Shown here piece by piece: positions 1 through 58,358 of a stretch of 58,358 bases of DNA. Within the stretch, counting starts at the first letter, position 1, and every line of letters starts with the position of its first letter. Below the pieces are notes generated by a model. The model made no database searches, was not told where the DNA came from, and saw only the letters and a list, made by a program, of their open reading frames with translations. A program made the position numbers and the translations under genes. Source of the DNA: Candidatus Berkelbacteria bacterium Licking1014_7 (GTDB lineage: Bacteria; Patescibacteriota; UBA1384; GWA2-35-9; CG2-30-39-44); the NCBI GenBank assembly GCA_007376535.1, contig VMGK01000002.1, positions 1 through 58,358 of the forward strand, written 5' to 3'.

Positions 1-3
1 GCA

Positions 4-119
4 AAATGACCCCGAACATCCCGCCTTGGCGGGAATACGGGGCAGGCATATCAAAAATTAAAAATATTTTTGCATTTTGATATTTGTTTTTGCTTTTTGC
101 TGTTTGATTTTTGATTTAA
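4..119. repeat. composite intergenic repeat (AT-rich arm plus GC hairpin CCCCGAACATCCCGCCTTGGCGGGAATACGGGG); inverted partner at 13394..13509
   Basis: The reverse complement aligns by eye to 13394..13509 with about 8 mismatches over about 112 nt. Confidence 0.85.
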
Positions 120-153
120 GTTTTTCATTCTTCTTTTTTAATTGTAATTTGAT

Positions 154-1122
154 TTATTCTACCCCAAAAATATAACTGGCAATAATTATTTTATCCATTG
201 GTTTTTGAATTGATTGGATAGCGCCGCTTAGAGTAGCGTCAGTAGAGTTTGTTTTGTCAATATAATAAATTTCATCATTATTGATAAAAATATTTGATAA
301 ATTTGTCTTCTTTAAGGAAATTTTTTTGATATTTTTATTTTTATCTAGTGAAAACATTTCAGGCGAATTTTCGTTTGAATTTGGCTTTGTCTTTTGCAAA
401 AATATAATCTCGGAATTCTTCCAAGCAATTTCAACCAAGTTATTTTCTGTCTCGTAAAAATTTTCTATTTTGTCCTGAGAGAAATCATAAATTTTTATCA
501 TTGATCCGCCTGACGGCGAATTTTCAGAAATTACCAAAGTGTTGTCCGCAGAAAGACCCATTGACATGATATTGTTTTGCGTGCGATAAATTTGTCTTTT
601 ATTTTCGCCGTTTAACTCTGCGGAAAAAATGGTAAAACCATAATCCTTTTCTACGTTTGAAAAACTTGTATAAATAATTTTTTTATTATTTTTTGAAATA
701 ACCGGCAGATTATAAGTATAAAAATTTTCATTGATAATTTTTTTGTTGGCTTTTTGATCGGTTGTGATTTGGACTAATCTTTTTTTGGTTTCGTCTGTTG
801 TTCCTTCAAATACAATGATATTTCCGTTATCCATTGATAGCGCTTTGATGATTTTAAATTCTTCGTCTTTGTCAAAGTAAAATCTTTTGGTTTCTTTGAC
901 GGATTCTGTATATCGGTATAAATTGGTTTGGTTTGGCTCAATCAGCGCGTAAAAAATTTTGCGATCGCTTTTAAAATCGAAAATATCATTGCTAATTGTA
1001 TTATTCTTTTTCTGTGAATTATCTGTTCGTTTTCCCAGACCTTGAGAAAAAAACCAAATAGAGACAACAAAAAATAATATTGTCAAAAAAAATATCGGTC
1101 TTTTACGATTAGTAGGCATCAT
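154..1122 (-). CDS. membrane-anchored PD40/TolB-like beta-propeller repeat protein (family tentative)
   Basis: 322-aa ORF with N-terminal TM helix IFFLTILFFVVSIWFF. Recurrent strand repeats end in IY/IF (KKIIYTSFS, ENKRQIYRT, SMIKIYDF). Its start overlaps the 3' end of secY by 14 nt. Confidence 0.5.
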   Translation of the reverse strand: MMPTNRKRPIFFLTILFFVVSIWFFSQGLGKRTDNSQKKNNTISNDIFDFKSDRKIFYALIEPNQTNLYRYTESVKETKRFYFDKDEEFKIIKALSMDNGNIIVFEGTTDETKKRLVQITTDQKANKKIINENFYTYNLPVISKNNKKIIYTSFSNVEKDYGFTIFSAELNGENKRQIYRTQNNIMSMGLSADNTLVISENSPSGGSMIKIYDFSQDKIENFYETENNLVEIAWKNSEIIFLQKTKPNSNENSPEMFSLDKNKNIKKISLKKTNLSNIFINNDEIYYIDKTNSTDATLSGAIQSIQKPMDKIIIASYIFGVE

Positions 1123-2398
1123 ATTGTCTTGTTATGAGATGCGCTTTAAGTTGATTTGATGTTTCAAAAACCACTGAGACCAAAATTAGTAAACTTGTTC
1201 CGCCCAATACCAAGGTGGTTATACCGGTAAATGACTGAATAATAAATGGTAAAATCGCAATCACGCCCAAAAATAGCGATCCGGGAAAGGTAATTCTTTT
1301 GATAATTTTATCAATATAATTTTCCGTTTCTTTGCCCGGTCTTATGCCGGGAATAAACCCGCCTTGTTTTTGCAAATTTTCCGCCACTTGTTTGGGCTGG
1401 AATACAATTGAGGTGTAAAAAAATGTGAAAGCCACGACTAAAATAAAATAAGTTGCTCCGTAAGAAAATGAATTTGGATCAAAAAATTTAACAATCATTT
1501 TTGCAAAATTAGCGATAATTGGCGACTGGGCTTTGGTAAAAAAATTAGCCAAAAGTCCGGGAAAGACAATTACTGATAAAGCGAAAATTATCGGTATTAC
1601 GCCAGCAGTATTGATTTTCATTGGCAAATATGTGTCTATCAAGCCGCGCGACGATCTGCTTTGAATTTTTCTGGCATAAGAGATAGGGATTTTTCTGATC
1701 GCTTCGTTCATAAGCACAATAAATATTATTGTTGCGATCGCAATAAAACCAAAGACGATTAGTCCGTACAATTTTGTCGTGTCCACTTCACCAGATCCAA
1801 AGACAATGGCTGTGGTGTTGCCTATTTGTTCCGGAATTCCGCCCAAAATTCCAACGGTGATGATTAGAGAAATTCCATTGCCAATCCCTTCTTCTGAAAT
1901 AATTTCGCCCATCCACATCATAATTATAGTCACAGCCGTAGAAATGAGCAAAACATTAATTAATTGAAAGGAACTAAATTGACCGATAATATCTTGGCTT
2001 TTAAGCAGCGCGATCATACTAAATGACTGAATAAGCGACAGCGGCACAGTAAGCATTCTGGTATATTGATTGATTTTGTGTTTTCCCTGCTCACCTTCTT
2101 TGTTTAATTCGTCAAGCGAAGGAATGATAAAAGTTAGTAGTTGTAAAATTATTGAAGCGGTAATGTACGGACCGACGCCCATTAGACCAATGCTAAAATT
2201 TGATAAAGTTCCGCCAGAAAAAATATCAAGCAAACCCAAGATTTGATTTTGCGAGAAAAATTCTTGTAATGTCTCTCTGGTAATGCCCGGAATCGGAATC
2301 TGGGTAATGAAACGAACAATAATTAGCAGTATTATGGTGAGGAGAATTCTTCGGCGCAAGTCCCTTAAAACAAAAATTTTTTTAATACTTGATAACAT
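1109..2398 (-). CDS. secY: preprotein translocase subunit SecY
   Basis: 429-aa polytopic membrane protein with a SecY-like N-terminus ([26 protein letters not shown]), sitting directly after rplO. Confidence 0.95.
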
Positions 2399-2786
2399 TT
2401 TTCAGGGTTTTAGAGGTTGGAACTAAATATTTGAAATGTTTAGTTGGTTTTTTGTCCGCCAAAATTTTTACATTATTTGTTTTGGCAATTTTATGTTTTA
2501 TAAGCGCTTCAATGGTTATTTCGTCGTTTATCTTAAAATGTTTTTCAATCAGAGAATATTTGATTATTTGCGGTTTGGCTTTTTTTGAGCGAAAGCCCTT
2601 GAATTTTGGAATGCGCGCCGCTAATTTGGATTGACCACCCTCAAAAGCGCGTGGCAGATTATAACCACTGCGGGATTTTTGACCCTTGTGTCCCCGGCCC
2701 GAGGTCTTGCCTTTACCACTGCCAGGGCCCCGGCCAACTCTCTTATTTTTTTTGAATGGTTTTGACAAAAGGTTGTTTAATATCAT
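2382..2786 (-). CDS. rplO: 50S ribosomal protein L15
   Basis: [26 protein letters not shown] motif and spc operon position. Confidence 0.93.
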
Positions 2787-2919
2787 TTTTTTGTTTTTGT
2801 TTAAGAACCCATTTCAAAAATCAATTGGCAGTTGCAACAGGAGATATTATGGCTACAAAACAAGAAATACTCGTCATCGTAGCTTTGGCTGCGCTTCCTC
2901 ACATGTTCTTGTTTTTCGC

Positions 2920-3426
2920 CTATAATCTCTCCTGTTTCTCTCCTAATTGAGTTTTGAAACGGGTTCTTAATAAATTTTCTGTTGCTTTTAATTTTCTTAA
3001 AGCCAAAAAAGTGGCTTTGACATTGTTAATTTTGTTATTTGAGCCAAAAATTTTTGCCACAATATTTTTAATTCCCGCCACTTCAATCACGGCGCGCACC
3101 GCGCCGCCAGCAATAACTGAAGTTCCGGCTGGCGCTGGTTTCAAAATTAAATTGGCTGAATTATATTTAGCGCGGATTGGATAAGCAATCGAATCGTTTT
3201 TAATAGTAATTTTAATCATTTTCTTTTTGGCTTTTGATTTGGCTTTATTGATGGCTTCGGCAACTTCTTTGCCTTTGCCAACCCCAAAGCCCACTTTCCC
3301 TTTTCTGTCTCCAAGAACCAAAAGTGCCCGAAACGAAATTCTCCGTCCTCCTTTGACTGTTCTTGATACGCGGTCAATATGAATTACTCTTTCCTCAAAC
3401 TCAGATTGTTTTTTGTGTTCTGGCAT
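2920..3426 (-). CDS. rpsE: 30S ribosomal protein S5
   Basis: VIHIDRVSRTVKGGRRISFRALLVLGD...GFGVGKGKEV motif. Confidence 0.95.
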   Translation of the reverse strand: MPEHKKQSEFEERVIHIDRVSRTVKGGRRISFRALLVLGDRKGKVGFGVGKGKEVAEAINKAKSKAKKKMIKITIKNDSIAYPIRAKYNSANLILKPAPAGTSVIAGGAVRAVIEVAGIKNIVAKIFGSNNKINNVKATFLALRKLKATENLLRTRFKTQLGEKQERL

Positions 3427-3430
3427 AAAA

Positions 3431-3715
3431 TTATATCTTAATTTTTGTATCTCTTAATGCCTGGATAAAATTTTTAATTCTACCGTGGTATTTTTGTTTT
3501 TTTCTGTCAAAAAAAATATTAGTAATTTTTTTATCCTGAATTTTTTGCGCTAAGTCCTTGCCGATTTCGTAGGCGATTGATAATTTTGCGCCATTTTTTT
3601 GTTTGCCTTTTGAAGTGGCGCTTGCCACTACAAAACCGGATAAATCAGCCACTTGTCCTGAAATATGTTTTAAGCTTTTTGAAATTGTCAGTTTGTATTG
3701 TTTTTTATTTGACAT
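3431..3715 (-). CDS. rplR: 50S ribosomal protein L18 (short N-terminus)
   Basis: C-terminal FDRKKQKYHGRIKNFIQALRD resembles the L18 FDR..y.YHGRV motif. Sits between rplF and rpsE. Confidence 0.85.
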   Translation of the reverse strand: MSNKKQYKLTISKSLKHISGQVADLSGFVVASATSKGKQKNGAKLSIAYEIGKDLAQKIQDKKITNIFFDRKKQKYHGRIKNFIQALRDTKIKI

Positions 3716-3849
3716 AATTATTAAATTAAAATTAAGAAAGCAGAAATAAGAATTTAAATTAGAAATAAAAGGCGAATTATTTTGAATTTTTTATTTAATT
3801 TCTTCTCCGCCAGCTGACGGACTACATTCTTAAGGGTAAATTCGTTATT

Positions 3850-4395
3850 TTAAGCGCCGGCGGTTTTGGCGGCTTTACCCGGTTTAAGTTTGATTAATTC
3901 ATTTTGATAACGAATTCCTTTTCCTTTATATGGATCAGGTTTTTTGAGCGATTTAATTTTCGCGGCAAACTCGCCTACTTTTTGCTTATCAATGCCTGAA
4001 ATAGTAATTAAATTTTTCTCCGTTTGTACTTTTATATCTTTGGGAATCTCGATTTCGATTGAATGGGAAAAACCTAAATTCAAAATAATTTTATTATTGT
4101 CCATACTCACGTCATATCCGACACCTCTTACTTCTAAGATCTTTTCAAAACCTTTGCTTACGCCAATAATCGCATTGCTCAAAAGCGACCGGTATAAACC
4201 GTATTTTGGTTTAGTGTAAGAATTTTTTTGGGAGCAAGAAAGTTTTATCAAATTATTTTCAATTTTAATTTCAATGAATTTGGGAAATGTTAATGTCAAA
4301 ATTCCAAGCGGACCTTTGATTTCTACAATGGTTTCATCAACATTTATTAAGACCCCCGGTTCTAATGTAATTGATTTTTTTCCGATTCTGCTCAT
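3850..4395 (-). CDS. rplF: 50S ribosomal protein L6
   Basis: MSRIGKKSI start with two-domain L6 length and operon position. Confidence 0.95.
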   Translation of the reverse strand: MSRIGKKSITLEPGVLINVDETIVEIKGPLGILTLTFPKFIEIKIENNLIKLSCSQKNSYTKPKYGLYRSLLSNAIIGVSKGFEKILEVRGVGYDVSMDNNKIILNLGFSHSIEIEIPKDIKVQTEKNLITISGIDKQKVGEFAAKIKSLKKPDPYKGKGIRYQNELIKLKPGKAAKTAGA

Positions 4396-4778
4396 GCTAC
4401 CTCACAAATAATTTCTCCGCCTAACCGTTTCTTTTTAGCGGTTTGGTGGGTCATTACGCCTTCTGGCGTGGACATAACAATGATTCCATAGCCCAGTCGC
4501 GGTCGGGGAATATTTTTTGCCTGGCTATAGGCCCGGCGGCTGGGTTTTGAAATTCTTTTGATTAAATTTATCGCCGGGAAATCATCAAAATATTTTAAAT
4601 CAATCTGGATGGATCTTTTTATCTCATTGTATTTAAAATCTTTGATATAGTTTGTTTTTTTAAGCACTCTTAAAATCTCTATTTTGATTTTAGAAAATGG
4701 CGTGCTTACATTCGCTTTGTTTTGCGAGTAACCATTTTTTATGCTTACCAACATATTTGAAATTGGATCTTGTGTCAT
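4392..4778 (-). CDS. rpsH: 30S ribosomal protein S8
   Basis: DPISNMLVSIKNG start and GGEIICEV C-terminus. Confidence 0.95.
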   Translation of the reverse strand: MTQDPISNMLVSIKNGYSQNKANVSTPFSKIKIEILRVLKKTNYIKDFKYNEIKRSIQIDLKYFDDFPAINLIKRISKPSRRAYSQAKNIPRPRLGYGIIVMSTPEGVMTHQTAKKKRLGGEIICEVA

Positions 4779-4843
4779 TATTTTTTGTTAATTTTTTACC
4801 ATGATGACCTATCACTTTTAACAATTTTTAAAATATTTTCGCA

Positions 4844-4966
4844 GGATAATTGACTTCGACGCCATCCGCAGCCGAGCGGGCACGGTGGTCGCCGCGGCGA
4901 CCGAGCGAGGCGAGGACGAGCGAGGAGCCACGCTGGGGCGACGAGCGTGCTGAGAAGCAATTATCC
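4844..4966 (+). repeat. GC-rich 123-nt element (module C, full copy) with 9-nt terminal inverted repeats GGATAATTG/CAATTATCC and a central 16-nt palindrome GGTCGCCGCGGCGACC
   Basis: Truncated copies lie at 44891..44986 (reverse orientation) and 52578..52670. Sits between rpsH and rpsN. Confidence 0.85.
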
Positions 4967-5006
4967 AAGAAAATATAACATAAAGCCGAATTTTGTGTAA
5001 GTCGTG

Positions 5007-5192
5007 TTACCATGATGATTTTTGGATGCCGGGAATTTCACCGTTGCTGGCTTTTTCTCGAAAACATATTCGGCACATTCCGAATTTTCTAATATAACCT
5101 TTTGGTCTGCCACAAAGCCGGCAGCGATTTTTTTTTCGGGTAGAAAATTTTACCTTTTTTTCTGATTTTGCGACTTGTGATTTTTTAGCCAT
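5007..5192 (-). CDS. rpsN: 30S ribosomal protein S14, zinc-binding type Z
   Basis: 61 aa with CRLCGR...CRICFRE (CxxC-x12-CxxC). Confidence 0.93.
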
Positions 5193-5197
5193 AATTG

Positions 5198-5254
5198 TTA
5201 AATAAGAATTAAGAATTAAGAATGAAGAAATTAAATTATAATTAAGAAATTTTT
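5198..5254. repeat. 57-nt AT-rich module D (AATAAGAATTAAGAATTAAGAATGAAGAAATTAAATTATAATTAAGAAATTTTT)
   Basis: Identical to 18298..18354. Both copies abut the start codon of an r-protein gene (rpsN, rpsL). Degenerate copies lie at 18456..18494, about 37110..37170 and about 46690..46750. Confidence 0.9.
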
Positions 5255-5362
5255 GATTTACCTGCCCGCCAAAATGAAATCTATTTGCAGATTTCTATAA
5301 TTAGAATACTGCAAGAGATTGAATGACGGCGGGAAAGAATGCCAGCCGGATTCTTCATTTGT

Positions 5363-5905
5363 CTATTGTTTTGCAACCGGCAAACCGATAACTTCTAATA
5401 ATTTTTTGGCATATTCGACTTTTTTTGCTTTGACGCAAATGTTAATCCCGATGCTTTGGATGTGTGTAACATTTTCATACATAATTTCAGGAAAAACCGC
5501 ATATTCTCTAATTCCCAGATTAAAATTTCCGTGGCTATCAAATTTTGCATTTAAACCCTTAAAGTCCCTGACGGCCGGCAAGGCAAAATTGATTAATTTA
5601 TACAAAAACTCATACATTTTTTCATTGCGCAATGTTGTCATCATCGCGACTGTTTCGCCGGTTCTTAATTTAAATTCCGCAATTGAACGTTTGGATTTGA
5701 TGAATTTTGGTTTTTGTCCGGTAATTTTTTCAATATCTGCGGCAATTTTTTGCACAGTTTCTTTTACATCGCGAATTTTTGCCATTCCAACATTAACAAT
5801 AATTTTTTCAATTCTGGGCAATTCATAAAATTTTTTTATCCCTAATTTTTTGGCTAACTCGGGGTAAATTTTTTTTACCAATTTTTGTTTGAATTGACTT
5901 TTCAT
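5363..5905 (-). CDS. rplE: 50S ribosomal protein L5
   Basis: LPRIEKIIVNVGMAK motif and operon position. Confidence 0.95.
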   Translation of the reverse strand: MKSQFKQKLVKKIYPELAKKLGIKKFYELPRIEKIIVNVGMAKIRDVKETVQKIAADIEKITGQKPKFIKSKRSIAEFKLRTGETVAMMTTLRNEKMYEFLYKLINFALPAVRDFKGLNAKFDSHGNFNLGIREYAVFPEIMYENVTHIQSIGINICVKAKKVEYAKKLLEVIGLPVAKQ

Positions 5906-5909
5906 AAAG

Positions 5910-6245
5910 TTATTTCGCAGTGGGTCTATCTAAGTTTTTCAAGCATTTGGCGCAATATCTTATTTTTTTACCACTGTCAATTTTAATTTTAATTTTCGTG
6001 ATTTTTTGGCAATTTGGGCAAATTATTCTTACATTGCTAATATCAATTGGGTGTTGAATATCAACAATTCCGCCTTTGGGGTATTTGGACGAGGGTTTGG
6101 CGTTTTTCTTCAAAATATTTGCGCCATCAAGCCAGACCTTTCTGTTTTTGGCAAAGACCTTATTCGCAACAACCATTTTTCCCCTATCTTTTCCCGCGCA
6201 TATTCTTACAGTATCGCCTTTTTTTATTTTGGTCTTATAATTCAT
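5910..6245 (-). CDS. rplX: 50S ribosomal protein L24 with Cys4 C-terminal tail
   Basis: KOW motif KKGDTVRICAGKDRGK. C-terminal CPNC...CAKC. Confidence 0.9.
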   Translation of the reverse strand: MNYKTKIKKGDTVRICAGKDRGKMVVANKVFAKNRKVWLDGANILKKNAKPSSKYPKGGIVDIQHPIDISNVRIICPNCQKITKIKIKIDSGKKIRYCAKCLKNLDRPTAK

Positions 6246-6249
6246 AAAT

Positions 6250-6615
6250 TTAAATTACTTCTTTGGCAAGCGAAATGATTTTTTTATATTTGGTATTCCT
6301 GATTTCGCGCGGAATTGGTCCGATAATTCGGGTGCCTTTAATTCCCTCATCCGCGACTATAACCACGGCGTTTTGGCTGAATTTAATTGATGATCCGTCG
6401 CTTCGTCTAATGGGTGAGGTGGTGCGCACGACGATGGCTTTAACCACGGTTTTTTTCTTGATTTGTGAAAGCGGGGTGACTAAAATCGCGCTTGCCACTA
6501 CAATATCGCCCACCCGCGCTGGTTTTTTGGGACCTCTTCTTGAGGGTTGAATAACTCTAATTTGTTTTACGCCGCTATTATCAGCCACGGCGCAGATTGA
6601 TCTTGACTGCAACAT
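6250..6615 (-). CDS. rplN: 50S ribosomal protein L14
   Basis: MLQSRSICAVADNSGVK start. Confidence 0.95.
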   Translation of the reverse strand: MLQSRSICAVADNSGVKQIRVIQPSRRGPKKPARVGDIVVASAILVTPLSQIKKKTVVKAIVVRTTSPIRRSDGSSIKFSQNAVVIVADEGIKGTRIIGPIPREIRNTKYKKIISLAKEVI

Positions 6616-6636
6616 AATATTTTAAACTTTACATTG

Positions 6637-6909
6637 TCATTTTGAGATTTGAATTTTGAGATTTGGATTTGAGATAGATTTATTTTTACTGATTATTTTC
6701 CATTTTTTATTTTTTGAAATTGGTCTGGTGGATTCGATTTCAACCATGGCGTGTTTTTCAACATTTTTTCCGTTAGTGTCAACTAAGTAATTTTTATGGG
6801 ATTTGTATCTTTTTTTATAAAGCGGGTGAATTTTAATTGTTTCAACTTTTACCTTAACTGTTTGAACGTCAATGATGGTGGTGATTTCGCCGATAAGTTT
6901 TTGCTTCAT
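6637..6909 (-). CDS. rpsQ: 30S ribosomal protein S17
   Basis: HPLYKKRYKSHKNYLV motif and operon position. Confidence 0.9.
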   Translation of the reverse strand: MKQKLIGEITTIIDVQTVKVKVETIKIHPLYKKRYKSHKNYLVDTNGKNVEKHAMVEIESTRPISKNKKWKIISKNKSISNPNLKIQISK

Positions 6910-7118
6910 TTGATTTCCTCTAAAATTCTTTGATTAATTAATGTTTTAATTTGCGCGATTTGTTTTTTAAGTATTTTTACTTTTCCAGTATTTGAATTTT
7001 TTTGGGTCGCAATGGCAATTTTAATATTACGCAATTCGGATTGCAATTTTTCCAATGTTTCAAATAATTTTTTAGTCGCTAATTTATTGAATGTTATCAA
7101 ATCCTGCTTTTTTTTCAT
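6906..7118 (-). CDS. rpmC: 50S ribosomal protein L29
   Basis: 70-aa helical protein between rplP and rpsQ. Confidence 0.85.
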   Translation of the reverse strand: MKKKQDLITFNKLATKKLFETLEKLQSELRNIKIAIATQKNSNTGKVKILKKQIAQIKTLINQRILEEIK

Positions 7119-7146
7119 AAATATTATTAACCTTGAATTTCGTAAC

Positions 7147-7554
7147 TCAAGGTTTTGAAATAATTTTGGTTTTGATTGGCAATTTATATTGCGCTAATTT
7201 TAAGGCCTGTTTGGCGATTGATTGTTCGACGCCGTCCATTTCAAAGATAATTCGTCCGGGTGTGACTGTGCAAACATAATGATCTACTGAGCCCTTTCCG
7301 CCGCCCATGCCTGTCTCATTGGGTTGGCTGGTGACTGGTCGGTCGGGAAAAACTCTAATCCAAACTTGACCTTCTCTTTTAATAAATCTGGTAAGCGCTC
7401 TCCGGGCGGCTTCAATTTGGCGCGAAGTGAGCCAGCCCCTTGATTGAGCTTTTAATCCAAAAGAGCCGAATTCAAGATTTTGACCTCGGTTGGAAATGCC
7501 ACGCATTTTTCCCCTAAAATGCTTTCTGTGTTTTACTTTTCTTGGAATAAGCAT
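7147..7554 (-). CDS. rplP: 50S ribosomal protein L16
   Basis: MLIPRKVKHRKHFRGKM start. The track start at 7572 is a TTG 6 codons upstream, and the ATG at 7554 matches the canonical L16 N-terminus. Confidence 0.93.
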   Translation of the reverse strand: MLIPRKVKHRKHFRGKMRGISNRGQNLEFGSFGLKAQSRGWLTSRQIEAARRALTRFIKREGQVWIRVFPDRPVTSQPNETGMGGGKGSVDHYVCTVTPGRIIFEMDGVEQSIAKQALKLAQYKLPIKTKIISKP

Positions 7555-7628
7555 AATGTAATTTAGTCGCAAAATTCAAACCTCCCCGAAAGCTATCGCA
7601 ACAGGGCAGGATCTAAACTATAACTATT

Positions 7629-7714
7629 GATAAAAATTCCAATTCTCAAGCATCAATGTTCAATGATCCCTTGAGATTTTGATTCATTGGAATTTGTAAA
7701 CGATTAGAGTAATT
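7629..7714 (+). repeat. module E copy 1
   Basis: GATAAAAATTCCAATTCTCAAGCATCAATGTTCAATGA...GGAATTTGTAAACGATT. Near-identical to 26078..26147. Reverse copies lie within 11892..12115 and 40195..40366. Confidence 0.9.
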
Positions 7715-8344
7715 TTATTTATAAATCCAAACTTTTATACCGATTGTTCCGTAAGTGGTTTGAGCATGATAGACAGAAAAGTCAATATTGGCGCGAAAAG
7801 TTGAAGTAGGAATTTGACCTTGTTGATATTTTTCGCTTCGGGCGATTTCTTTGCCAGCCAAACGACCTGACACTTGCACTTTAATTCCTTTAGCGCCCGC
7901 ATCTTTGGTTTTAGCGATGGCTTGTTTAATTGCTCTTTTGTAATGCATTCTTTTTGAAATTTGATAACCAATATTTTCCGCCACAATTGTGGCTGATAAT
8001 TCTGGTTTTTTGTATTCCATAATTTCAAGGTGAAGGTTGGTCTTTTGGTTTTTAAAAACTTTTTTTAAAATAAAACTTTTAACATCGTTGATTCCTTGTC
8101 CTTGTCTGCCGATCAAAAGACCGGGTTTTGAAGTGTGGATTTGAACCTTGATTTCGTCGGCGCTTCGTTTAATGATAATTTTGTCTATGCCGGCTGATGG
8201 TCCGACTTTTTCGGCGATCGCTTTTCTGATTTTTGCGTCTTGAATTAAAAATTCTGTATACACTTTGCCTTTAGCGTACCAAATACTGCGCCAATTTTTA
8301 TTTAACGGCAACCTAATTGAAATCGGATTAACTTTTTGTCCCAT
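7715..8344 (-). CDS. rpsC: 30S ribosomal protein S3
   Basis: MGQKVNPISIRL start and KH/S3-C domains. Confidence 0.95.
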   Translation of the reverse strand: MGQKVNPISIRLPLNKNWRSIWYAKGKVYTEFLIQDAKIRKAIAEKVGPSAGIDKIIIKRSADEIKVQIHTSKPGLLIGRQGQGINDVKSFILKKVFKNQKTNLHLEIMEYKKPELSATIVAENIGYQISKRMHYKRAIKQAIAKTKDAGAKGIKVQVSGRLAGKEIARSEKYQQGQIPTSTFRANIDFSVYHAQTTYGTIGIKVWIYK

Positions 8345-8451
8345 TTTTGTATTTAATTTAATTATAAATTGAATTCAAGGTTTTGAATTTTGGATTACAT
8401 TTTGAGATTTGAGATTTGAGATAGATTTATTTTTAGGTAAGTCGGGTAATT

Positions 8452-8784
8452 TCATTTTTTTGATAATTCTATTGTAATATGCGATTGAAATTTTTTAAGC
8501 GGGGAAGTTCTGCCACGGCTTCTGGGAATGTGTCTTTTAAGCGCTGGACCTTGATCTGCCCTGATGGCGCTAATCACAAAATCATTTTTTTCTAAATTTT
8601 TTTCATTTAGGATATTGATGCCATTTGATAGCATTTTTTCTAAAATTCTCGCCCCGTATTTTTTAATCAGAAAAAGTTTTCGTTGGGCTTTTTCAATGGT
8701 TAAATACTTAATTTCATATCCCACAATTCTTATTTTTCTCGGAGCAATTTTGGCGTATCGTTTGGTAATGTTGATTGTTTTCAT
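8452..8784 (-). CDS. rplV: 50S ribosomal protein L22
   Basis: ISPRKIRIV-like start and operon position. Confidence 0.9.
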
Positions 8785-9098
8785 TTTTTACTCTTTTTTG
8801 TAGCTTCCGTTTTTTTGATTCTATCAGTTTGTTCTTGTTCTTTTGCCATTTTCCCACCATGCCTTTTGAATGTTCTGGTGGGCGCGAATTCGCCTAATTT
8901 ATGTCCGACCATTTCTTCTTTGGCTTTGACTGATATAAAATGTTTTCCATTATGCACTTCAAATTCAACCCCGATCATTTCTGGTGTTATAGTTGATGAA
9001 CGGCTCCAGGTTTTAATGGCTTTTTTGCCGTCATAGTTTTTAACTTTTTTTAATAGTTTTGCGTCTGTGAACGGTCCTTTTTTTAGTGATCGACTCAT
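8781..9098 (-). CDS. rpsS: 30S ribosomal protein S19
   Basis: [12 protein letters not shown] start and [13 protein letters not shown] motif. Confidence 0.95.
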
Positions 9099-9925
9099 TT
9101 GGTTTTTCTCCGTTTGATAATAAATTTACTTGATGGTTTTTTCTTTTTGCGGGTCTTGCCGCCAATGGCAATTTTGCCCCAGGGGGTTTTGGGATATTTC
9201 AGACCAATCGGGTTTCCACCTTCTCCTCCTCCGTGCGGATGCGCGGCTGGATGCATGGCTTTCCCTCGCACTGTTGGTCTAAATCCCATATGTCGCTTTC
9301 TTCCAGCTTTTCCTATCACTATATTTGAATGTTCGTCATTTGACAATGTTCCAATGGAAGCAAAACACTCAATATGGAATTTTCTAATTTCGCTTGACGG
9401 CAATTTGACAATGGCGTATTTACCTTCTTTTGAATTAATAATTCCGGTTTGTCCAGCGCTGCGGATGATTTTCCCGCCTGATCTTGGTTGCATTTCAAGG
9501 TTATAAATCATTGTTCCAGCCGGAATATTTTTCAGCATCATTCTGTTGCCGGTTTGAATCGGCGCTTTTTGGTCTGATACGACTAGATCGCCAACTTTCA
9601 GATTTTGCGGAGCCAGTATATATGATTTGCTTTGATTTTCATATTCGATTAAAGCGATAAATGCGGTGCGGTAGGGGTCGTATTCAATTGATAAGACCTT
9701 GGCTTTTTTTCCAAAATTAAATTGCTTGAAATCAATCATTCGGTATTTTTTCTTGGCGCCTCGTTGTTTGTGGCGCACGCTAATTTTTCCAGTATTGTCT
9801 CTGCCAGCCCGGGATTTCAGGATTTTGAGTAATTTTTTATGAGGTTTTTTTTGGGTAATTTGCGAAAAATCCGACACAGTCATGGCTCGACGCGAAGGGG
9901 TGTACGGTTTGTAAGATTTAATCAT
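9095..9925 (-). CDS. rplB: 50S ribosomal protein L2
   Basis: HPHGGGEGG motif, 276 aa. Confidence 0.96.
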
Positions 9926-10281
9926 ATTTTTTTGTCGTTAGATTTTAATGTTTTTGTTTCTAATTTTTGGGGAGTATTTTTCTCGGTTTCAATTTCAAAA
10001 TCCTTAATTTTTTGACCTTTTTTTATGGTGATAATCGCTTTCTTAAAATCGCTTCTTTTGCCAAAACGGGAAATGGCAGATCGGTTAATTCTCACTCGCT
10101 TTTTCTTGCCCATTTGATTGATAATGTTAATTTTCAAAACATTTACTTGATACATTTTTTCAATCAGTTTTCTGATTTCTGTTTTATTACCGTCAGAAGG
10201 CACCTTAAAAGTATAGCGGTTTTTATTAGTTTGGTTTAGTGATTTTTCGCTGATTTGTGGATAAACTTGTTGCGTTTTCAT
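9922..10281 (-). CDS. rplW: 50S ribosomal protein L23
   Basis: Position between rplD and rplB, with a FKV...K.EI..L.E..Y.V.V..I pattern. Confidence 0.85.
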   Translation of the reverse strand: MKTQQVYPQISEKSLNQTNKNRYTFKVPSDGNKTEIRKLIEKMYQVNVLKINIINQMGKKKRVRINRSAISRFGKRSDFKKAIITIKKGQKIKDFEIETEKNTPQKLETKTLKSNDKKI

Positions 10282-10886
10282 AAGTTTATTTTTACGATTT
10301 TTTGTAATGCCTTTTTTGTAATCAGCATATATTTACTTTTTGCCACATCCAAAGCGCTAAAACTATTGCCTGAAAAGTAATTGGCGAATGGTATATTTCT
10401 AACGGATTTTTTCAGATTTTTTATTTCTTTGAAACTGGCAACAAGTATTTTTTTGTTGACATTTATTTTTTTAAATAAATTGGCAACCAGTGATGTCTGG
10501 GGTGTTTTAAGGTGAAATTTGTTTATGACGAAAAGATTTTTTTCTTTGGCGAGCAGATAAATTAAATTTTTAACTGCTTGTTGTTTGACTTTTTTGTTAA
10601 GTTTGATTTTTCTAGCAATTGGTTGGGGCGCGAATGTTACGCCTCCGCCTCTCCACAACGGACTTTTTACGCTACCGGCGCGAGCGCGACCAGTACCTTT
10701 TTGGCGCCAGGGTTTTTTATTCGACCCTTTGACCTGCCCTCGTGATTTGGCTGCTTTGGTGTTTTGTCTTTGCGCTGTTGCCAAATTTACCAAAACCGAC
10801 TTAATATCTAATTTTGGTTTGGATATATCTTTGATTTTAATGGAGGCGATTTTTTCGCCTTGTTGATTGATGACATCTATTTTCAT
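10278..10886 (-). CDS. rplD: 50S ribosomal protein L4
   Basis: KPWRQKGTGRARAGS motif. The ATG at 10886 forms an ATGA overlap with the rplC stop. The track start at 10907 is 7 codons further upstream. Confidence 0.9.
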   Translation of the reverse strand: MKIDVINQQGEKIASIKIKDISKPKLDIKSVLVNLATAQRQNTKAAKSRGQVKGSNKKPWRQKGTGRARAGSVKSPLWRGGGVTFAPQPIARKIKLNKKVKQQAVKNLIYLLAKEKNLFVINKFHLKTPQTSLVANLFKKINVNKKILVASFKEIKNLKKSVRNIPFANYFSGNSFSALDVAKSKYMLITKKALQKIVKINL

Positions 10887-11494: not shown

Positions 11495-11557
11495 AATTAA
11501 AACTAACTTGCGGACTTTCTGATTTTCCAGAAGTTTCCCCAAGTTTTCTTAATTCTA

Positions 11558-46752: not shown

Positions 46753-46790
46753 GCCTGCCCCGTAATCCCGCCAAGGCGGGATGTTCGGGG
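46753..46790 (-). repeat. module A copy
   Basis: GCCTGCCCCGTAATCCCGCCAAGGCGGGATGTTCGGGG. Confidence 0.9.
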
Positions 46791-46854
46791 TAATTTAATT
46801 TCTTCATTCTACCCCGCCTGCATTCAATCTCTTGCAAAAATAGGTGATTATTCC

Positions 46855-46895
46855 CCCGCCTGCTAATCGCCTGAGCGATAGCGATGGCGGGCAGG
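46855..46895 (+). repeat. module B copy
   Basis: CCCGCCTGCTAATCGCCTGAGCGATAGCGATGGCGGGCAGG. Confidence 0.9.
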
Positions 46896-47093
46896 TCTTT
46901 TGCAAACCCGCCGTCGTTCAATCTCTTTGAGAAGTAGATGATTATTTCTTTTCTCAAATTAGATTTCACTTTGGCGGGCGCGGTAGATTTCATTTTGGCG
47001 GGCAGGCATTTTGAGATTTGAATTTTGAGATTTGAGATTGAATCTTTTATTCATTCTTAATTTTAATTTAATAAAGAATGCCAGTCGGATTCT

Positions 47094-47678
47094 TTATATT
47101 AATCTTAAATGATTAAACGGATAAAAAATTACAAAAACTCTGCCTTCAAATTGCGAAAAATTAACCGCTCCGATTACGCGCGAGTCCTTTGAATTTTGCC
47201 GATTATCTCCAATTACAAAATACTCATTATCCTGCAAAACATATATTTTTGACTCCAACGATTGACTGCTTGTATTTGTATTGATTGCGTCAGGCAGATA
47301 TGGCTCGTCTAATTTATAGCCATCAACATAAATTTTGTTGTTGACAATTTTGACGGTTTCGCCGGGTAAACCAATAATTCTTTTGATATAACTGTCAGGA
47401 GAATCAGTTGGGTTAAACACAATCACATCGCCCCGTTTGGGCGCGGAAAAACGATAAGAAATTTTATCCACTAACAAATATTCATTATCGTGAAAATTCG
47501 GCTCCATAGACACGCCTTCAATCACAAAGGTCTGAATTAAAAAATTCTTGATCGCAAAAGCGATAATCAACATTATGGCAGCGGTCTTGACTATTTCAAT
47601 CGCAAAATTAATGATTTGACTGATAGTCAAGTTTATTCTCATCCATTTTGATTTTGAACGATCGTTGGACTTTGTCAT
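47094..47678 (-). CDS. lepB: signal peptidase I
   Basis: GVSMEPNF, GDVIVF, YIKRIIGLPGE and GDNRQNSKDSR motifs. Confidence 0.93.
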   Translation of the reverse strand: MTKSNDRSKSKWMRINLTISQIINFAIEIVKTAAIMLIIAFAIKNFLIQTFVIEGVSMEPNFHDNEYLLVDKISYRFSAPKRGDVIVFNPTDSPDSYIKRIIGLPGETVKIVNNKIYVDGYKLDEPYLPDAINTNTSSQSLESKIYVLQDNEYFVIGDNRQNSKDSRVIGAVNFSQFEGRVFVIFYPFNHLRLI

Positions 47679-50187: not shown

Positions 50188-50282
50188 GAACCCATTGCAA
50201 AACTCTTAATCGTAGCGAAATATGATCACATTTGAGCGAAAAATACGAAACGTGAGGAAGCATCCGCCAAGGCGGACGATGA
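50188..50282 (+). repeat. 95-nt module H, 100 percent identical to 58262..58356
   Basis: GAACCCATTGCAAAACTCTTAATCGTAGCGAAATATGATCACATTTGAGCGAAAAATACGAAACGTGAGGAAGCATCCGCCAAGGCGGACGATGA. Confidence 0.95.
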
Positions 50283-50328
50283 ATCGTTGAAATAATTTTG
50301 AATTTTAGATTACACTTTGTCTCGTGGA

Positions 50329-50529
50329 TTAAATCAATTTTTTTAACTTTTTCTGGTCAGAAGTATTTACGCCGACTTTTCGCTTGGCATTGTTTTGACT
50401 TCTTTTGCTTTTGCCTTTTACCCGATGTTGGTCTGATTGATAGAGGCGAATGATTTTCGCTTTTTTCTTATTTTTCGGATTGGTTCTTTTAATTCTTTTG
50501 GCGGCTGATTTGTATGTCTTTTGTTTCAT
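50329..50529 (-). CDS. rpmI: 50S ribosomal protein L35
   Basis: 66-aa basic protein (KSAAKRIKRT) between infC and rplT. Confidence 0.9.
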   Translation of the reverse strand: MKQKTYKSAAKRIKRTNPKNKKKAKIIRLYQSDQHRVKGKSKRSQNNAKRKVGVNTSDQKKLKKLI

Positions 50530-51790: not shown

Positions 51791-51824
51791 ATAAATAATA
51801 AATCAAATCTCAAAATTTAAATCT

Positions 51825-51866
51825 CCCGCCCGCCATCGCTATCGCTCAGGCGATTAGCGGGCAGGC
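51825..51866 (-). repeat. module B copy
   Basis: CCCGCCCGCCATCGCTATCGCTCAGGCGATTAGCGGGCAGGC. Confidence 0.9.
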
Positions 51867-51903
51867 CCCGTTAGAAATTACGCGACAATTATTTCTAACG
51901 GGG
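51866..51903. repeat. module J hairpin CCCCGTTAGAAAT-12 nt-ATTTCTAACGGGG
   Basis: Perfect 13-bp stem. The same arms occur inside the pilin 5' coding regions. A variant lies at 18541..18569. Confidence 0.85.
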
Positions 51904-51925
51904 CAGGCAAAATGACAGCGGATTT

Positions 51926-52420: not shown

Positions 52421-52577
52421 ATTCCTTCCTTTCTGTCCTTTTGGACAATTTATTTTAATTTTATTTTTATTTTCAAGCGAACGAGAGAAATGAAAACTTG
52501 TTTTCACTTCCGAGTGAGCGCTGAAAAAAAGTTAATGCTTTACACGACTTACGGATTATATCCTTAATATATTTTCG

Positions 52578-52670
52578 GGATAATTGACTTCGAAGCCATC
52601 CACAGCCGAGCGGGCACGGTGGTCGCCGCGGCGACCGAGCGAGGCGAGGACGAGCGAGGAGCCGTGCTGA
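52578..52670 (+). repeat. module C truncated copy fused to module B (52671..52700)
   Basis: Matches 4844..4936 with a few substitutions. Confidence 0.85.
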
Positions 52671-52797
52671 TCGCCTGAGCGATAGCGATGGCGGGCCGGT
52701 CTTCTCAAAATAGACTTCATTTCCGTCGGGCAGGCAGACCCTGACAGACCATACTCCTGAAAAAAGTGTTACTGATGTGCCCTGCCTGGACATTGGA

Positions 52798-53743: not shown

Positions 53744-53800
53744 ATAGACTCACTGCAAAATAACCTTTTCTGCCCACCGTCATTCAATCTCTTGCAAAAA
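53744..53800 (+). repeat. module G copy
   Basis: See 34988..35050. Confidence 0.85.
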
Positions 53801-56401: not shown

Positions 56402-57123
56402 TTATAGCCAAACGCCTTGGCGTAATAATTGCCTCCGTTGTTGCCCTTATAACAAGGGGACCCGGTTGGCGCTGTAAGACATGTTGAATCTGCGTTGGAT
56501 AAATCCATTGTTACCGTGTTTGCGTCTGGGTTTGTCCAAGTTGATGTTTCTAATTTTGCCCAAAGCGAATATCGCTGTTCCTCGGAACATTGTAGTCCTC
56601 CATTGGCGCTCAAGGGATAATACATATATGCATTCCTAGTCAATGAAACCGAAACCCCCCCTGAGAATGAGCCGTTGTATTTGGGGTCAAGCGGAATATT
56701 GCCGATATATTTAGGCACTAATGCTCTGTAAATTGAGTTCCAGGCTAGGTTACTATCATTAGGCGGGTTAGGCGATACCCCCTCATAAAGCCACGCCTCA
56801 ATTACATTATCGCATGTCGGATATTTTCCATTTACTTCATAATACCCTTCCAATGCTTGCTGGAGCGTTGCCAAATCTGCCTTCCTCTTGGCATCGCGGG
56901 CTTTGGCGGTTTGTCCTTTGAAACTGATAACCGCAATAGAAGAAAGAATGCCAATAATCGCCACAACAACAACTAATTCTATTAGGGTAAACCCCGTTAG
57001 AAATTTTTGGTTCCGCGATGTTTTACGCAAAAAACAAACTTTTTCCACAAATTTATCGCAGATATTTTTGATATTTCTAAACGGGGTAAACCCCGTTTGA
57101 ATATTTTTCATTTTACCTACCAT
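56383..57123 (-). CDS. type IV pilin-like protein (prepilin-type N-terminal cleavage/methylation domain)
   Basis: FLTG/FTLIELVVVVAIIGILSSIAV. A possible TTG start at 57030 would give MRKTSRNQKFLTG, parallel to the next pilin. Confidence 0.78.
   Translation of the reverse strand: MVGKMKNIQTGFTPFRNIKNICDKFVEKVCFLRKTSRNQKFLTGFTLIELVVVVAIIGILSSIAVISFKGQTAKARDAKRKADLATLQQALEGYYEVNGKYPTCDNVIEAWLYEGVSPNPPNDSNLAWNSIYRALVPKYIGNIPLDPKYNGSFSGGVSVSLTRNAYMYYPLSANGGLQCSEEQRYSLWAKLETSTWTNPDANTVTMDLSNADSTCLTAPTGSPCYKGNNGGNYYAKAFGYNYRVGN
56992..57086. repeat. inverted repeat CCCCGTTAGAAAT ... ATTTCTAAACGGGG flanking 68 nt in the pilin 5' region
   Basis: Arms at 56992..57004 and 57073..57086. An extra hairpin AAACGGGG-taaa-CCCCGTTT lies at 57079..57098. 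Confidence 0.8.
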
Positions 57124-57623
57124 GCTTGCGCTCCCGAAGAAAATACTTCGAAATAGTCAGTCGATACTCCGCCGTCATTGCTCTCTGACCCTGTATCAAG
57201 TAATAAATTGGTTTTTAATTTGTAATCATTTACTGTCCCAGCATAATTATATTGATTGCTTCCGCTGGCATGAATGGGGATAGTAGGCATATACGGTCGG
57301 AGGACTGTTTGCAAATAAGCCCAAGTCAACCTACCGGCGACGCAATTATTTGTCGCAGTTACAGTCATAACGGTAGCGCTATTAATAAAGCATTTAACTG
57401 CTAACGCCCCATTGGTGACAGGATAAGAACTATTCACTTCATAATATAGATTTAAAGCTTTTTGCATTTCTTTAAGATCAGAGACGCTTTTTGTGTCTTT
57501 GGCTTTTTTTGTCTGTCCAGAAACCATCACCACAGCAATACTTGACAATACTCCGATTATGGCTATCACTATCACCAATTCTATTAGGGTAAAACCGGTT
57601 AGAAATTTATTTGATTTTCGCAT
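57117..57623 (-). CDS. type IV pilin-like protein
   Basis: MRKSNKFLTG/FTLIELVIVIAIIGVLSSIAV with AAGGAG SD. Confidence 0.82.
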   Translation of the reverse strand: MRKSNKFLTGFTLIELVIVIAIIGVLSSIAVVMVSGQTKKAKDTKSVSDLKEMQKALNLYYEVNSSYPVTNGALAVKCFINSATVMTVTATNNCVAGRLTWAYLQTVLRPYMPTIPIHASGSNQYNYAGTVNDYKLKTNLLLDTGSESNDGGVSTDYFEVFSSGAQAW

Positions 57624-57635
57624 TTTACTCCTTAT

Positions 57636-58190
57636 TTACAAATTTATATTTATCGCTTTTTTGCAAAGTTTATATCTCATTTGATAGGAATCATAAAGTC
57701 CTTGATCTATGGTTGTATCGTTCTCTTTTTCCATAAAACTGTAAAGGCAGACGCCGGAGGTATCTGGAACACCAGTGCCTCCGTTACCATCATATATCAT
57801 ATATTCGTTGTTAGCAGTGGTATTCTGAAAATATGTAAGTTTTTGCGCGGGAAAAAGACCCACATCGTATAGTTTGCCTATGACTGATCTGGTGTAATCG
57901 GCATTATCTTCTAAATCTAACCAGCCCGCTCCGGCTCCCTTGAATCCTCCTCCCGAAACCGCGTAGGTCCCGTTCTTTTCATAGTATAGATCCAACGCTT
58001 TCATTACTTCTGTCAATGTGGCTTTGCGCGCCGTGTCCCGGGCTTTGGCGGCTTGTCCCTGAAAAGTTACCACCATTATTCCTGCCAAAATGCCAATAAT
58101 CGAAATCGTCACCAATAATTCAATCAATGTAAACCCCGTTAGAAATATTCTTGAATTTCTAAACGGGGTAAACCCCTTTTTAGAAAACAT
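57636..58190 (-). CDS. type IV pilin-like protein with extended leader
   Basis: MFSKKGFTPFRNSRIFLTG/FTLIELLVTISIIGILAGIMV with GGAGGTG SD. Confidence 0.82.
   Translation of the reverse strand: MFSKKGFTPFRNSRIFLTGFTLIELLVTISIIGILAGIMVVTFQGQAAKARDTARKATLTEVMKALDLYYEKNGTYAVSGGGFKGAGAGWLDLEDNADYTRSVIGKLYDVGLFPAQKLTYFQNTTANNEYMIYDGNGGTGVPDTSGVCLYSFMEKENDTTIDQGLYDSYQMRYKLCKKAININL
58134..58168. repeat. hairpin CCCCGTTAGAAAT-attcttga-ATTTCTAAACGGGG inside the pilin leader-coding region
   Basis: 13-bp stem with one bulge, read directly. Confidence 0.85.
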
Positions 58191-58261
58191 TTACACCTCC
58201 TTACTATAAATTATTTTTTTAGACTTTCTTCCGCAATAACTTTTTCTACCTATTACTCTAA

Positions 58262-58356
58262 GAACCCATTGCAAAACTCTTAATCGTAGCGAAATATGAT
58301 CACATTTGAGCGAAAAATACGAAACGTGAGGAAGCATCCGCCAAGGCGGACGATGA
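58262..58356 (+). repeat. module H, identical to 50188..50282
   Basis: 95/95 identical by eye. The window ends at 58358. Confidence 0.95.
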
Positions 58357-58358
58357 CG

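Follow-up and report, generated by a model that had tools for sequence, protein, structure and literature searches.

Nested palindromic repeats with a shared hairpin foot and tag fill the spacers of conserved operons in a Berkelbacteria genome and resemble REP- and MITE-like elements

The stretch of DNA analyzed here, 58,358 bp of contig VMGK01000002.1 and in the following called the "window," comes from Candidatus Berkelbacteria bacterium Licking1014_7, and the subject is the short repeats between its genes. Genomes of the candidate phyla radiation (CPR, Patescibacteria) are small, streamlined, and generally held to be poor in repeats and mobile DNA. The window has a GC content of 33 to 43% and densely packed genes, which are nearly all transcribed from the minus strand. 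It begins with secY and the S10-spc ribosomal protein genes (154-11872), followed by tuf, one hypothetical gene on the plus strand, fusA, rpsG, rpsL, rpoC (1,231 amino acids), rpoB (1,102 amino acids), ybbR, cdaA, infB, gyrA, gyrB, cell envelope genes, def, fmt, priA, lepB, infC-rpmI-rplT, rpsP, trmD, and finally three pilin-like genes. The rpsN gene was placed at 5007-5192 on the minus strand; a gene for L30, tRNA genes, and a tmRNA gene were not found in the window. A Pfam scan of the 20 nonribosomal open reading frames (ORFs) revealed no transposase domain, in agreement with the initial annotation of this DNA, which had reported neither an insertion sequence (IS)-type transposase nor a REP-associated tyrosine transposase (RAYT; REP, repetitive extragenic palindrome). 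The S7 protein was at most 59% identical to that of any GTDB species representative, with all best matches from Patescibacteria, and EF-G was 79% identical to that of Candidatus Berkelbacteria CG_4_9_14_3_um_filter_39_23 and of a few contigs of metagenome-assembled genomes (MAGs), with the next matches at 70% or below.

The noncoding share of the window was 12.7%, which is ordinary among CPR. A self-BLAST of the window yielded 73 repeat pairs, nearly all of them within spacers. Exact repeated 16-mers, used here as a measure of coverage (that of 12-mers being uninformative in AT-rich DNA), covered 33.8% of the 7.4 kb of noncoding but 1.43% of the 51 kb of coding DNA. The self-BLAST and these percentages bear out the central claim of the initial annotation, an intergenic repeat mosaic even inside the conserved operons. 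In 20-kb slices of the window, repeats covered 9 to 23% of the noncoding DNA, compared with a median of 2% and a maximum of 11.5% in 45 other str operon loci of CPR. The five spacer lengths quoted as conspicuous proved exact once rpsN had been placed: 228 nt for rpsH-rpsN, 142 nt for rplP-rpsC, 272 nt for rpsJ-tuf, 308 nt for fusA-rpsG, and 335 nt for rpoC-rpsL. That such spacers are "normally tiny" holds insofar as those of the window are 3 to 5 times longer than the CPR medians (101 nt for rpoC-rpsL with n = 9, 80 nt for rpsG-fusA, and 55 nt for tuf-rpsJ), but they are not unprecedented. The lepB-priA spacer (46683-47093) has 411 nt and consists of modules throughout.

About ten reusable modules, designated A to K, had been described. 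Nearly all of them were present at the sites given for them, not as independent bricks, however, but mostly as pieces of a few nested palindromic units, which form three layers. The first layer consists of GC-rich hairpins of 29 to 43 nt, with one type of 73 nt, that are alike only at their ends. The foot of such a hairpin is a stem of 5 bp, CCCCG/CGGGG or CCCGC/GCGGG, and 3' of the foot follows an unpaired "tag," CAGGC, which is 5' GCCTG on the opposite strand. The tag is occasionally changed to CAGGT, or to CAGT where the next hairpin abuts. Five unlike interiors share this one foot and unpaired tag, and all of them fold as predicted; nearly any self-pairing sequence may serve as the interior. 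The same architecture is common to A, B, J, the 73-nt hairpin with module G as its arm, and several further hairpins. The foot-and-tag pattern was found in 15 elements of the 58-kb window, and nothing convincing came from 1.4 Mb of other CPR loci. The sequence GGGCAGGC occurred 13 times, compared with 0.75 occurrences expected, and 12 of the 13 were intergenic; GCCTGCCC was the top GC-rich 8-mer of the spacers, with 12 occurrences in spacers and 1 in coding DNA. The orientation relative to transcription, a check proposed with the initial annotation, was not binding, since 11 tags were in plus and 7 in minus orientation despite the transcription of nearly one strand only.

The second layer is formed by AT-rich tandem repeats with a period of 7 nt, and among their units are TTTGAGA, TAAGAAT, CAATTTA, ATTGAAA, and AAAGCAA. 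Where these 7-mer arrays face each other, they form long imperfect palindromes such as the "DE" unit of about 105 nt, which comprises module D and part of module E (z score of folding of −2.9 for 18296-18400), and two others of 129 to 145 nt (17152-17296 and 42380-42508). The third layer contains the longer composites C (about 150 nt), H, I, and E2/E3. The complete module C is a GC-rich long hairpin (z = −4.1). Because the hairpins sit inside the AT-rich palindromes, some entire spacers fold as one structure, with z scores of −7.0 for fusA-rpsG, −9.6 for rpoC-rpsL, −8.4 upstream of tuf, −7.2 upstream of rpoB, and −8.3 for lepB-priA. All features are listed in Table 1.

The copy numbers of the modules were at or near those assigned to them. 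Four copies of A were counted where four or five had been given, and G was present in six instead of at least seven copies. For B, described with at least six copies, two full and two long partial copies were identified, together with one copy split by a nested hairpin and some fragments; for D, with at least five, there were three perfect 37-mers and three partial copies; and for K, three copies and one variant instead of four. All three copies of C exist, with only that at 4828-4978 being complete. The two copies of H were identical at 95 of 95 positions, the two of I were 92% identical and inverted, and the six sites of F were all present, with additional ones at 17370-17396 and 25937-25955. 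In case of J, one hairpin is real (J2 in Table 1). Of the four J 13-mers, the two at 56992 and 58134 are exact matches but are pilin coding sequence and were ruled out as modules. The 13-nt arm of J2 (CCCCGTTAGAAAT) is the reverse complement of the region encoding part of the pilin signal peptide (..FLTG..) at 56992-57004 and 58134-58146; this identity holds in two of the three pilin paralogues and may be due to chance or to an origin of the hairpin from a 5' fragment of a pilin gene.

Table 1. Repeat elements in the window and junctions at which the second assembly differs (positions are those of the window)
Feature	Position	Strand	Remarks
Tagged hairpin A	10-47	+	CCCCGAACATCCCGCCTTGGCGGGAATACGGGGCAGGC; foot CCCCG/CGGGG, 3' tag CAGGC
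Tagged hairpin A, diverged	13466-13503	−	4 changes
Tagged hairpin A	18495-18531	+	First of direct tandem pair inside DE palindrome
Tagged hairpin J1	18532-18567	+	Foot and tag as A, interior different
Tagged hairpin A	46753-46790	−	In DE palindrome
Tagged hairpin J3	37177-37213	−	Foot and tag of A, AT-rich interior; same DE site as A
Tagged hairpin J2	51866-51908	+	13-bp stem; abuts hairpin B
Tagged hairpin B	17329-17371	−	Foot CCCGC/GCGGG, tag CAGGC; heptamer array alongside
Tagged hairpin B	51824-51866	+	Identical copy
Hairpin B, split	25957-26032	+	Split by tagged hairpin (25973-26009, minus); nested, no duplication
Hairpin B variant	46849-46896	+	Tag CAGGT
B fragment	52665-52735	+	Joined to truncated module C, then tail ending GGGCAGGC
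B-like fragment	30245-30272	−	Adjoins heptamer array
73-nt tagged hairpin	5261-5333	−	CCCGCC...GGCGGGCAGG; 5' arm is module G; z = −6.5
Long G-type tagged hairpin, variant	46905-47007	+	
Tagged hairpin	13526-13621	+	Tail ending GGGCAGGC
DE unit, empty	18296-18400	+	...AAATTAT/AATTAAG...
DE unit, filled	18452-18628	+	Filled by A and J1
DE unit, empty	5195-5260	+	Right arm lost to long tagged hairpin
DE unit, filled	37110-37259	−	Filled by J3
DE unit, filled	46690-46812	−	Filled by A; lepB-priA spacer
Module I	4-122	+	Hairpin A, AT-rich palindrome, and AAAGCAA-type 7-mer run; 92% identical to 13391-13509, inverted
Module I, copy 2	13391-13509	−	
Module C, complete	4828-4978	+	rpsH-rpsN spacer; ends GGATAATTG...CAATTATCC
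Module C, cut at 44986	44885-44986	−	priA ORF reads through in window
Module C, cut at 52669	52564-52669	+	Joined to B
Module H (95 nt)	50188-50282	+	100% identical to 58262-58356
Module H, copy 2	58262-58356	+	2 nt before window end
Module G	35003-35054	+	AAATAACCTTTTCTACC..GTCATTCAATCTCTTGCAGTA
Module G	44833-44883	+	
Module G	53755-53800	+	Upstream of trmD
Module E2	7623-7714	+	...CAATGTTCAATGAT.CCTTGAGATTTTGATT.ATTGGAATTTGTA...; rpsC-rplP spacer; 83% identical to 26072-26184
Module E2, copy	26072-26159	+	
Composite E2 (inverted) + E3	11873-12113	+	tuf-rpsJ spacer; 11985-12113 is 94.6% identical to 40232-40360
Composite E2 (inverted) + E3, copy 2	40186-40360	+	
Palindrome of opposed arrays	17152-17296	.	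(CAATTTA)n versus (ATTGAAA)n
7-mer palindrome	42380-42508	.	Same type as 17152-17296; enters 3' end of fmt ORF
Heptamer array F, (TTTGAGA)n	6638-6688	+	Encodes 17-residue C-terminal extension of S17
Heptamer array F	8385-8435	+	
Heptamer array F	17095-17127	−	Pairs with 17370-17396, closing the entire fusA-rpsG spacer
Heptamer array F	17370-17396	+	Abuts hairpin B
Heptamer array F	25937-25955	−	Abuts split hairpin B
Heptamer array F	30215-30245	−	Abuts B-like fragment
Heptamer array F	47008-47045	+	Right after GGGCAGGC tag
Heptamer array F	51800-51825	−	Abuts hairpin B
Hairpin K	5334-5356	+	AAAGAAT...ATTCTTT arms
Hairpin K, copy	18429-18451	−	
Hairpin K, copy	47073-47095		
Hairpin K variant	13640-13678		Larger GC core
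Junction, second assembly +179 nt	42509/42510		fmt 3' end; extra tagged hairpin (CCCCGAACTCGCTTTGCGAAACGGGGCAGGC), 7-mers
Junction, second assembly +124 nt	44986/44987		Remainder of module C; priA 3' end
Junction, second assembly +252 nt	52669/52670		Rest of C, hairpin, two G, start of B; TGCT microhomology
Path divergence	50282/50283		After module H, second assembly takes the sequence following the other H copy

Evidence for insertion of the hairpins came from the DE units. Five DE copies could be aligned at one central site, which is empty in two of them (...GAAATTAAATTAT/AATTAAGAAATTT...) and filled in three, in one case by A, in another by A plus J1, and in the third by J3. In each filled copy, the hairpin is present in place of a single T, giving ...AAATTA[hairpin]AATTAAG..., and there is no target duplication. 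The split copy of hairpin B carries a tagged hairpin of opposite orientation inside, again with no duplication. Hairpin A itself has two kinds of sequence on its left side and two on its right. The left flanks of the hairpins often end with ..TTA or ..TGA, and the empty site contains no TTAC-type target. Copies of the modules within the window are 92 to 100% identical to each other, in accordance with a recent origin. Of a target-site duplication, which flanks each copy of miniature inverted-repeat transposable elements (MITEs), no clear case was seen; the ends of DE were uninformative, being TA...TA in AT-rich DNA. The complete module C in the rpsH-rpsN spacer is flanked by an 11-nt direct repeat, TACCATGATGA (4798-4808 and 5008-5018); the other copies of C are truncated. 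The right copy of this repeat is the end of rpsN. The repeat may have arisen as a target duplication, or the end of the gene may have been duplicated during insertion.

A second assembly of the same strain, ENA ERZ27284379, contains contigs k139_681969 (50.7 kb) and k139_799288 (6.1 kb), which together cover nearly the whole window, with 50283 to about 52330 uncovered. Over about 56 kb, there were 0 substitutions between both assemblies, and all module-rich spacers were reproduced but for four sites, so that the repeats are not assembly noise. Every one of the four differences, three insertions or deletions (indels) and one alternative junction, is located at modules, with the shorter form always in the window. 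The 3' ends of fmt and priA lie in modules and differ between the assemblies: the fmt ORF has 258 codons in the window versus 246 in the second assembly, and that of priA has 643 versus 585, the longer forms resulting from a continuation of both ORFs into modules. The reverse pattern was observed in a related Berkelbacteria species, where indels were nearly absent among six samples, which differed by 13 to 19 single nucleotide polymorphisms (SNPs) per 22 kb. The module regions are thus either deletion and insertion hot spots within one population or one of the assemblies is wrong at those points. No public sequencing runs holding the window are listed. In the two assemblies, each of the six contig ends is located in a module, which suggests indirectly that further copies exist elsewhere in the genome. 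Among samples of the related Berkelbacteria species (loci L082 to L087), the only sizeable indel in 22 kb was one of 36 nt in or beside a LysM/M23 peptidase gene, near 1-1510.

Searches outside the window indicated a restriction of the modules to this lineage. The exact pattern of module A had no match in GTDB representative genomes, JGI metagenomes, or IMG/VR, and that of the core of module B had none in JGI metagenomes or IMG/VR. The translation of a spurious ORF running over modules C and B yielded no match to other copies in a protein database. All spacers of the window, compared by BLAST with 88 related loci, gave chance-level AT-rich matches only, and the orthologous spacers of the nearest relatives, those with 79% EF-G identity, contained no modules. 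These relatives carry GC hairpins and TTTGAGA-like runs of their own, and one of their rpoC-rpsL spacers has a hairpin of GCCTGCC repeats. The motif GGCAGGC was considered as being conserved across relatives and rejected, because it was enriched in locus L088 through a single hairpin only and was not enriched in L083 and L084. Short-tandem palindromes and repeated GC hairpins were also seen in other str operon loci of CPR, namely in a Patescibacteria MAG (L034, JBAZZT010000001.1, at 17037-17226 and 19318-19471) and in locus L071 (1280-4230). About 10% of the noncoding DNA was covered in both loci, and milder versions may therefore be widespread in CPR. In the literature, no description of such repeats was found for CPR or Berkelbacteria.

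With a probability of about 60%, the spacers were colonized by lineage-specific, selfish, nested palindromic repeats that recombine with each other and resemble REPs, bacterial interspersed mosaic elements (BIMEs), or MITEs. The tagged hairpins would be mobile, have no function for the host, and be copied into AT-rich or palindromic targets without a target duplication by an enzyme acting in trans, which would recognize the foot and the tag on folded single-stranded DNA. Conserved ends together with free interiors, nesting, and missing duplications may be regarded as the signature of REP-like elements that are read as folded single strands. The best candidate for this enzyme, though a tentative one, is a RAYT- or IS200-type Y1 HUH transposase whose gene would lie in another part of the genome. 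The 7-mer arrays would grow by slippage. The long palindromes should provoke deletions and template switches, and recombination may reshuffle the pieces and erode gene ends, so that the spacers and the adjoining 3' ends of genes would become the fastest-changing part of the genome. A role at the RNA level in processing or stability, if there is any, would be secondary. Of the two explanations offered in the initial annotation, that of REP/MITE-like mobile or recombining elements gained support from the conserved ends, the empty and filled sites, the nesting, the occurrence in both orientations, the restriction to the lineage, and the second assembly. The other one, RNA processing or stability signals, gained none, as the modules occur in both orientations, have no T-tails, and do not match Rfam.

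REPs are GC-rich imperfect extragenic palindromes of 20 to 40 bp, occur in more than 100 copies per genome, and form superfamilies defined by a GTAG or CGTC tag (Di Nocera 2013, PMC3733652; Nunvar 2010, PMC2817692). Most of them form inverted doublets, the REPINs, which fold into a larger hairpin and are regarded as the unit of mobility, served by a flanking single-copy RAYT, a Y1 HUH enzyme (Bertels & Rainey 2011, PMC3116915). The tagged hairpins share with REPs and BIMEs their size, the GC-rich imperfect palindrome, the extragenic position, and an unpaired conserved motif at one end, and also the mosaics with other motifs, the location between cotranscribed genes, newer copies in or next to older ones, and the missing target duplication. 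They differ from both in the CPR host, in being embedded in AT-rich 7-mer arms, and in the absence of a RAYT from the window; moreover, the mosaic of recurrent motifs is not organized, as in BIMEs, in regular alternating arrays of opposite orientation with a small set of linker motifs in between. The 58 kb of the window contain about 15 to 18 hairpins. Units DE (about 105 nt) and C (about 150 nt) share with MITEs such as Correia/NEMIS, Nezha, RUP, and ERIC the noncoding sequence, terminal inverted repeats, long hairpins, both orientations, and cotranscription with neighboring genes, and they agree with the structural definition of 50 to 500 bp. Different from MITEs, no parent IS is known here, and the copies are heavily truncated and recombined. 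Palindrome-associated transposable elements (PATEs) derived from IS200/IS605 insert 3' of a fixed tetra- or pentanucleotide, make no duplication, and have subterminal hairpins at both ends. Here, no duplication was seen in two comparisons of empty and filled sites, and each element is one hairpin.

Parallels also exist outside these classes. Small dispersed repeats (SDR) of cyanobacteria reportedly insert into one another, and heptameric tandem arrays (STRR) are said to fill spacers there; the sequences and the phylum are different, but the tiny nesting repeats and 7-nt tandems are alike. The palindromic elements of Rickettsia (RPE) are repeats of 100 to 150 nt that reside in frame within genes of a small AT-rich genome. 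The palindromes of the window similarly enter ORFs, with 17 additional residues in S17, where the homology to the S17 protein of a relative stops at the start of the heptamer array, and with fmt and priA running into modules, but the effect on genes is confined to their 3' ends, and the majority of copies lie between genes. The GC clusters of yeast mitochondria are short mobile GC-rich palindromes in AT-rich repetitive spacers and form hot spots of deletion and recombination; they differ by belonging to a eukaryotic organelle and by other sequences and target motifs. The kind of element is well known, and the family is new in its tag, its host phylum, and its nesting in 7-mer palindromes.

Several results weigh against a colonization by REP- or MITE-like mobile repeats. 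The tag GCCTG (CAGGC) differs from both GTAG and CGTC. Each hairpin stands alone or in a direct tandem (18495-18567 and 51824-51908), and inverted doublets are missing, the sole adjacent pair of opposite orientation being the nested insertion at 25957-26032. With this other tag, single or tandem units, and no RAYT seen, they should not be filed as REPs or REPINs. The absence of a transposase from the window leaves the proposed enzyme without direct support. Many copies of the modules are partial and joined at differing breakpoints, which fits recombination or template switching equally well or better than clean transposition. For two of the three indels, which take away 3' ends of genes, there is no microhomology, and with 0 SNPs between the assemblies, the differences could also be an artifact of assembly or library construction.

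These breakpoints would favor an explanation without any transposition, according to which the mosaic arose from existing AT-rich spacers and hairpins by recombination and gene conversion, together with template switching and the slippage of 7-mers. Module C is cut on the left side at 44986 and on the right side at 52669, where it runs straight into the second half of B, and the 252-nt indel is associated with a TGCT microhomology. Long palindromes provoke deletions, and 7-mer arrays are typical products of slippage. This explanation is nevertheless unlikely, given complete hairpins with exact ends in unrelated contexts and three different hairpins at one site. Moreover, foot and tag are kept while the interiors differ entirely, which points to a recognition of the ends and is not explained by recombination alone.

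The position of the modules inside operons that have to be cotranscribed and their very strong RNA folds would also agree with cis-acting signals in RNA or DNA that were selected by the host, such as processing sites within operons (for example, RNase III stems), mRNA stabilizers, attenuators, or protein-binding sites, and that are repeated because many operons need them. A hairpin at 7584-7611, as read from the sequence, overlaps the Shine-Dalgarno motif of rplP, and REPs of Escherichia coli stabilize upstream mRNA. RNA roles of REPs have been discussed (PMC3733652). Such signals are rather improbable as the origin of the repeats, because one and the same module may point with or against transcription, the nearest relatives have no modules in their orthologous spacers, copies are cut at arbitrary points, and the sites vary between two assemblies of one strain. 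No Rfam family was matched at the gathering score, nor was any at an E value of ≤1. A role as intrinsic terminators was rejected, because the modules have no T-tails and A, B, and J were never called, and so was a role as promoters: good sigma-70 matches, including strong sites for rpoB, rpsP, dksA, and other genes, were in unique spacer DNA, and modules occurred in both orientations.

That the repeats or the assembly differences are artifacts, namely chimeric joins at short repeats, is very unlikely. The location of all contig ends in repeats and the shorter form being always that of the window would fit, and the identity at all single bases suggests that the two assemblies came from the same population or even from overlapping data. 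On the other hand, the second assembly agrees with the module-rich spacers base for base outside the four sites, at two of the junctions there is no common sequence by which a de Bruijn graph with k = 139 could be misled, and the repeats are far shorter than k. Least probable of all is a DNA uptake-type sequence or other protein recognition sequence of a competence-dependent CPR cell carried by the hairpins, comparable to the inverted pairs of DNA uptake sequences (DUS) in Neisseria. It would fit that GCCTGCCC is about 17-fold overrepresented, that the window contains three type IV pilin genes, one of them with a weak ComP_DUS match, and that a relative has the GCCTGCC-repeat hairpin. Against it, 12 of 13 copies lie between genes, in each case at the foot of a hairpin, each hairpin has a single tag and no inverted pair, L083 as the closest well-sampled relative shows no enrichment, and the pilin domain match is below the Pfam threshold.

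If the spacers were indeed colonized by such repeats, those inside the most conserved operons, S10-spc, str, and rpoBC, would consist here mostly of selfish nested palindromes. Provided that the assembly differences are true, palindromes change faster than single bases and rewrite the ends of rpsQ, fmt, and priA. With the family of tagged hairpins, a further tag and a further phylum would be added to the REP concept, and the hairpin would be a very small substrate for finding the mobilizing enzyme. It is conceivable, albeit as a long shot, that the hairpins tagged with GCCTG constitute an undescribed class of minimal mobile DNA, for which a CPR enzyme other than a classical RAYT reads only the 5-bp foot and the 5-nt tag on folded single-stranded DNA and pastes the hairpin near the centers of existing palindromes, with a structural turnover that outpaces point mutation and remodels the 3' ends of essential genes in a minimal genome. 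In practice, the repeats break assemblies and create spurious or overlong ORFs in the annotation of CPR MAGs. In the window, the ORFs 46736-46993 and 52473-52793 are spurious because they run through modules, and priA starts at 46682, the first 19 codons of the ORF listed for it being an overextension through modules.

Some structures in the spacers were not repeated. A near-perfect palindrome of 41 nt with a 19-bp stem (13738-13778), unique in the window, is located between the tuf promoter region and the plus-strand gene and was the strongest terminator-like call. The nonrepeated spacer at 41721-41901 (z = −8.0) has two long hairpins downstream of a sugar transferase gene and is probably a pair of terminators or a palindromic element without a second copy in the window. 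A unique GC-rich segment at 25838-25935, just upstream of the rpoB promoter and beside modules, appears to be structured and had no match in Rfam; it may represent a degenerate module or encode a small RNA.

Among the genes, the PriA-like ORF (44808-46682) matched in Pfam, at an E value of ≤0.01, only the N-terminal 3'-DNA-binding domain, with no helicase domains reported, which would make it a PriA either of an unusual type or strongly diverged. The plus-strand gene between tuf and fusA (13937-14890) encodes a hypothetical protein of 317 amino acids without a Pfam match. At this position, relatives have a gene for a domainless product of 292 to 300 amino acids on the opposite strand, followed by a gene for a FecR-domain protein, which is absent from the window. 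A GC-richer stretch at 38363-40370, outside the repeat families, contains small CxxC-rich ORFs (38509-38742 and 39526-40011, the latter with a weak zf-DNL match below the cutoff) and a domainless ORF of 192 codons. A segment with GGTACCTCCC is duplicated there with 79% identity (38804-38866 and 39970-40025). Finally, an rpmI (L35)-like ORF at about 50325-50490 on the minus strand, between infC and rplT, was missing from the list of ORFs with at least 70 amino acids, and the rpmI-rplT spacer is therefore in reality about 170 nt long and mostly module H.

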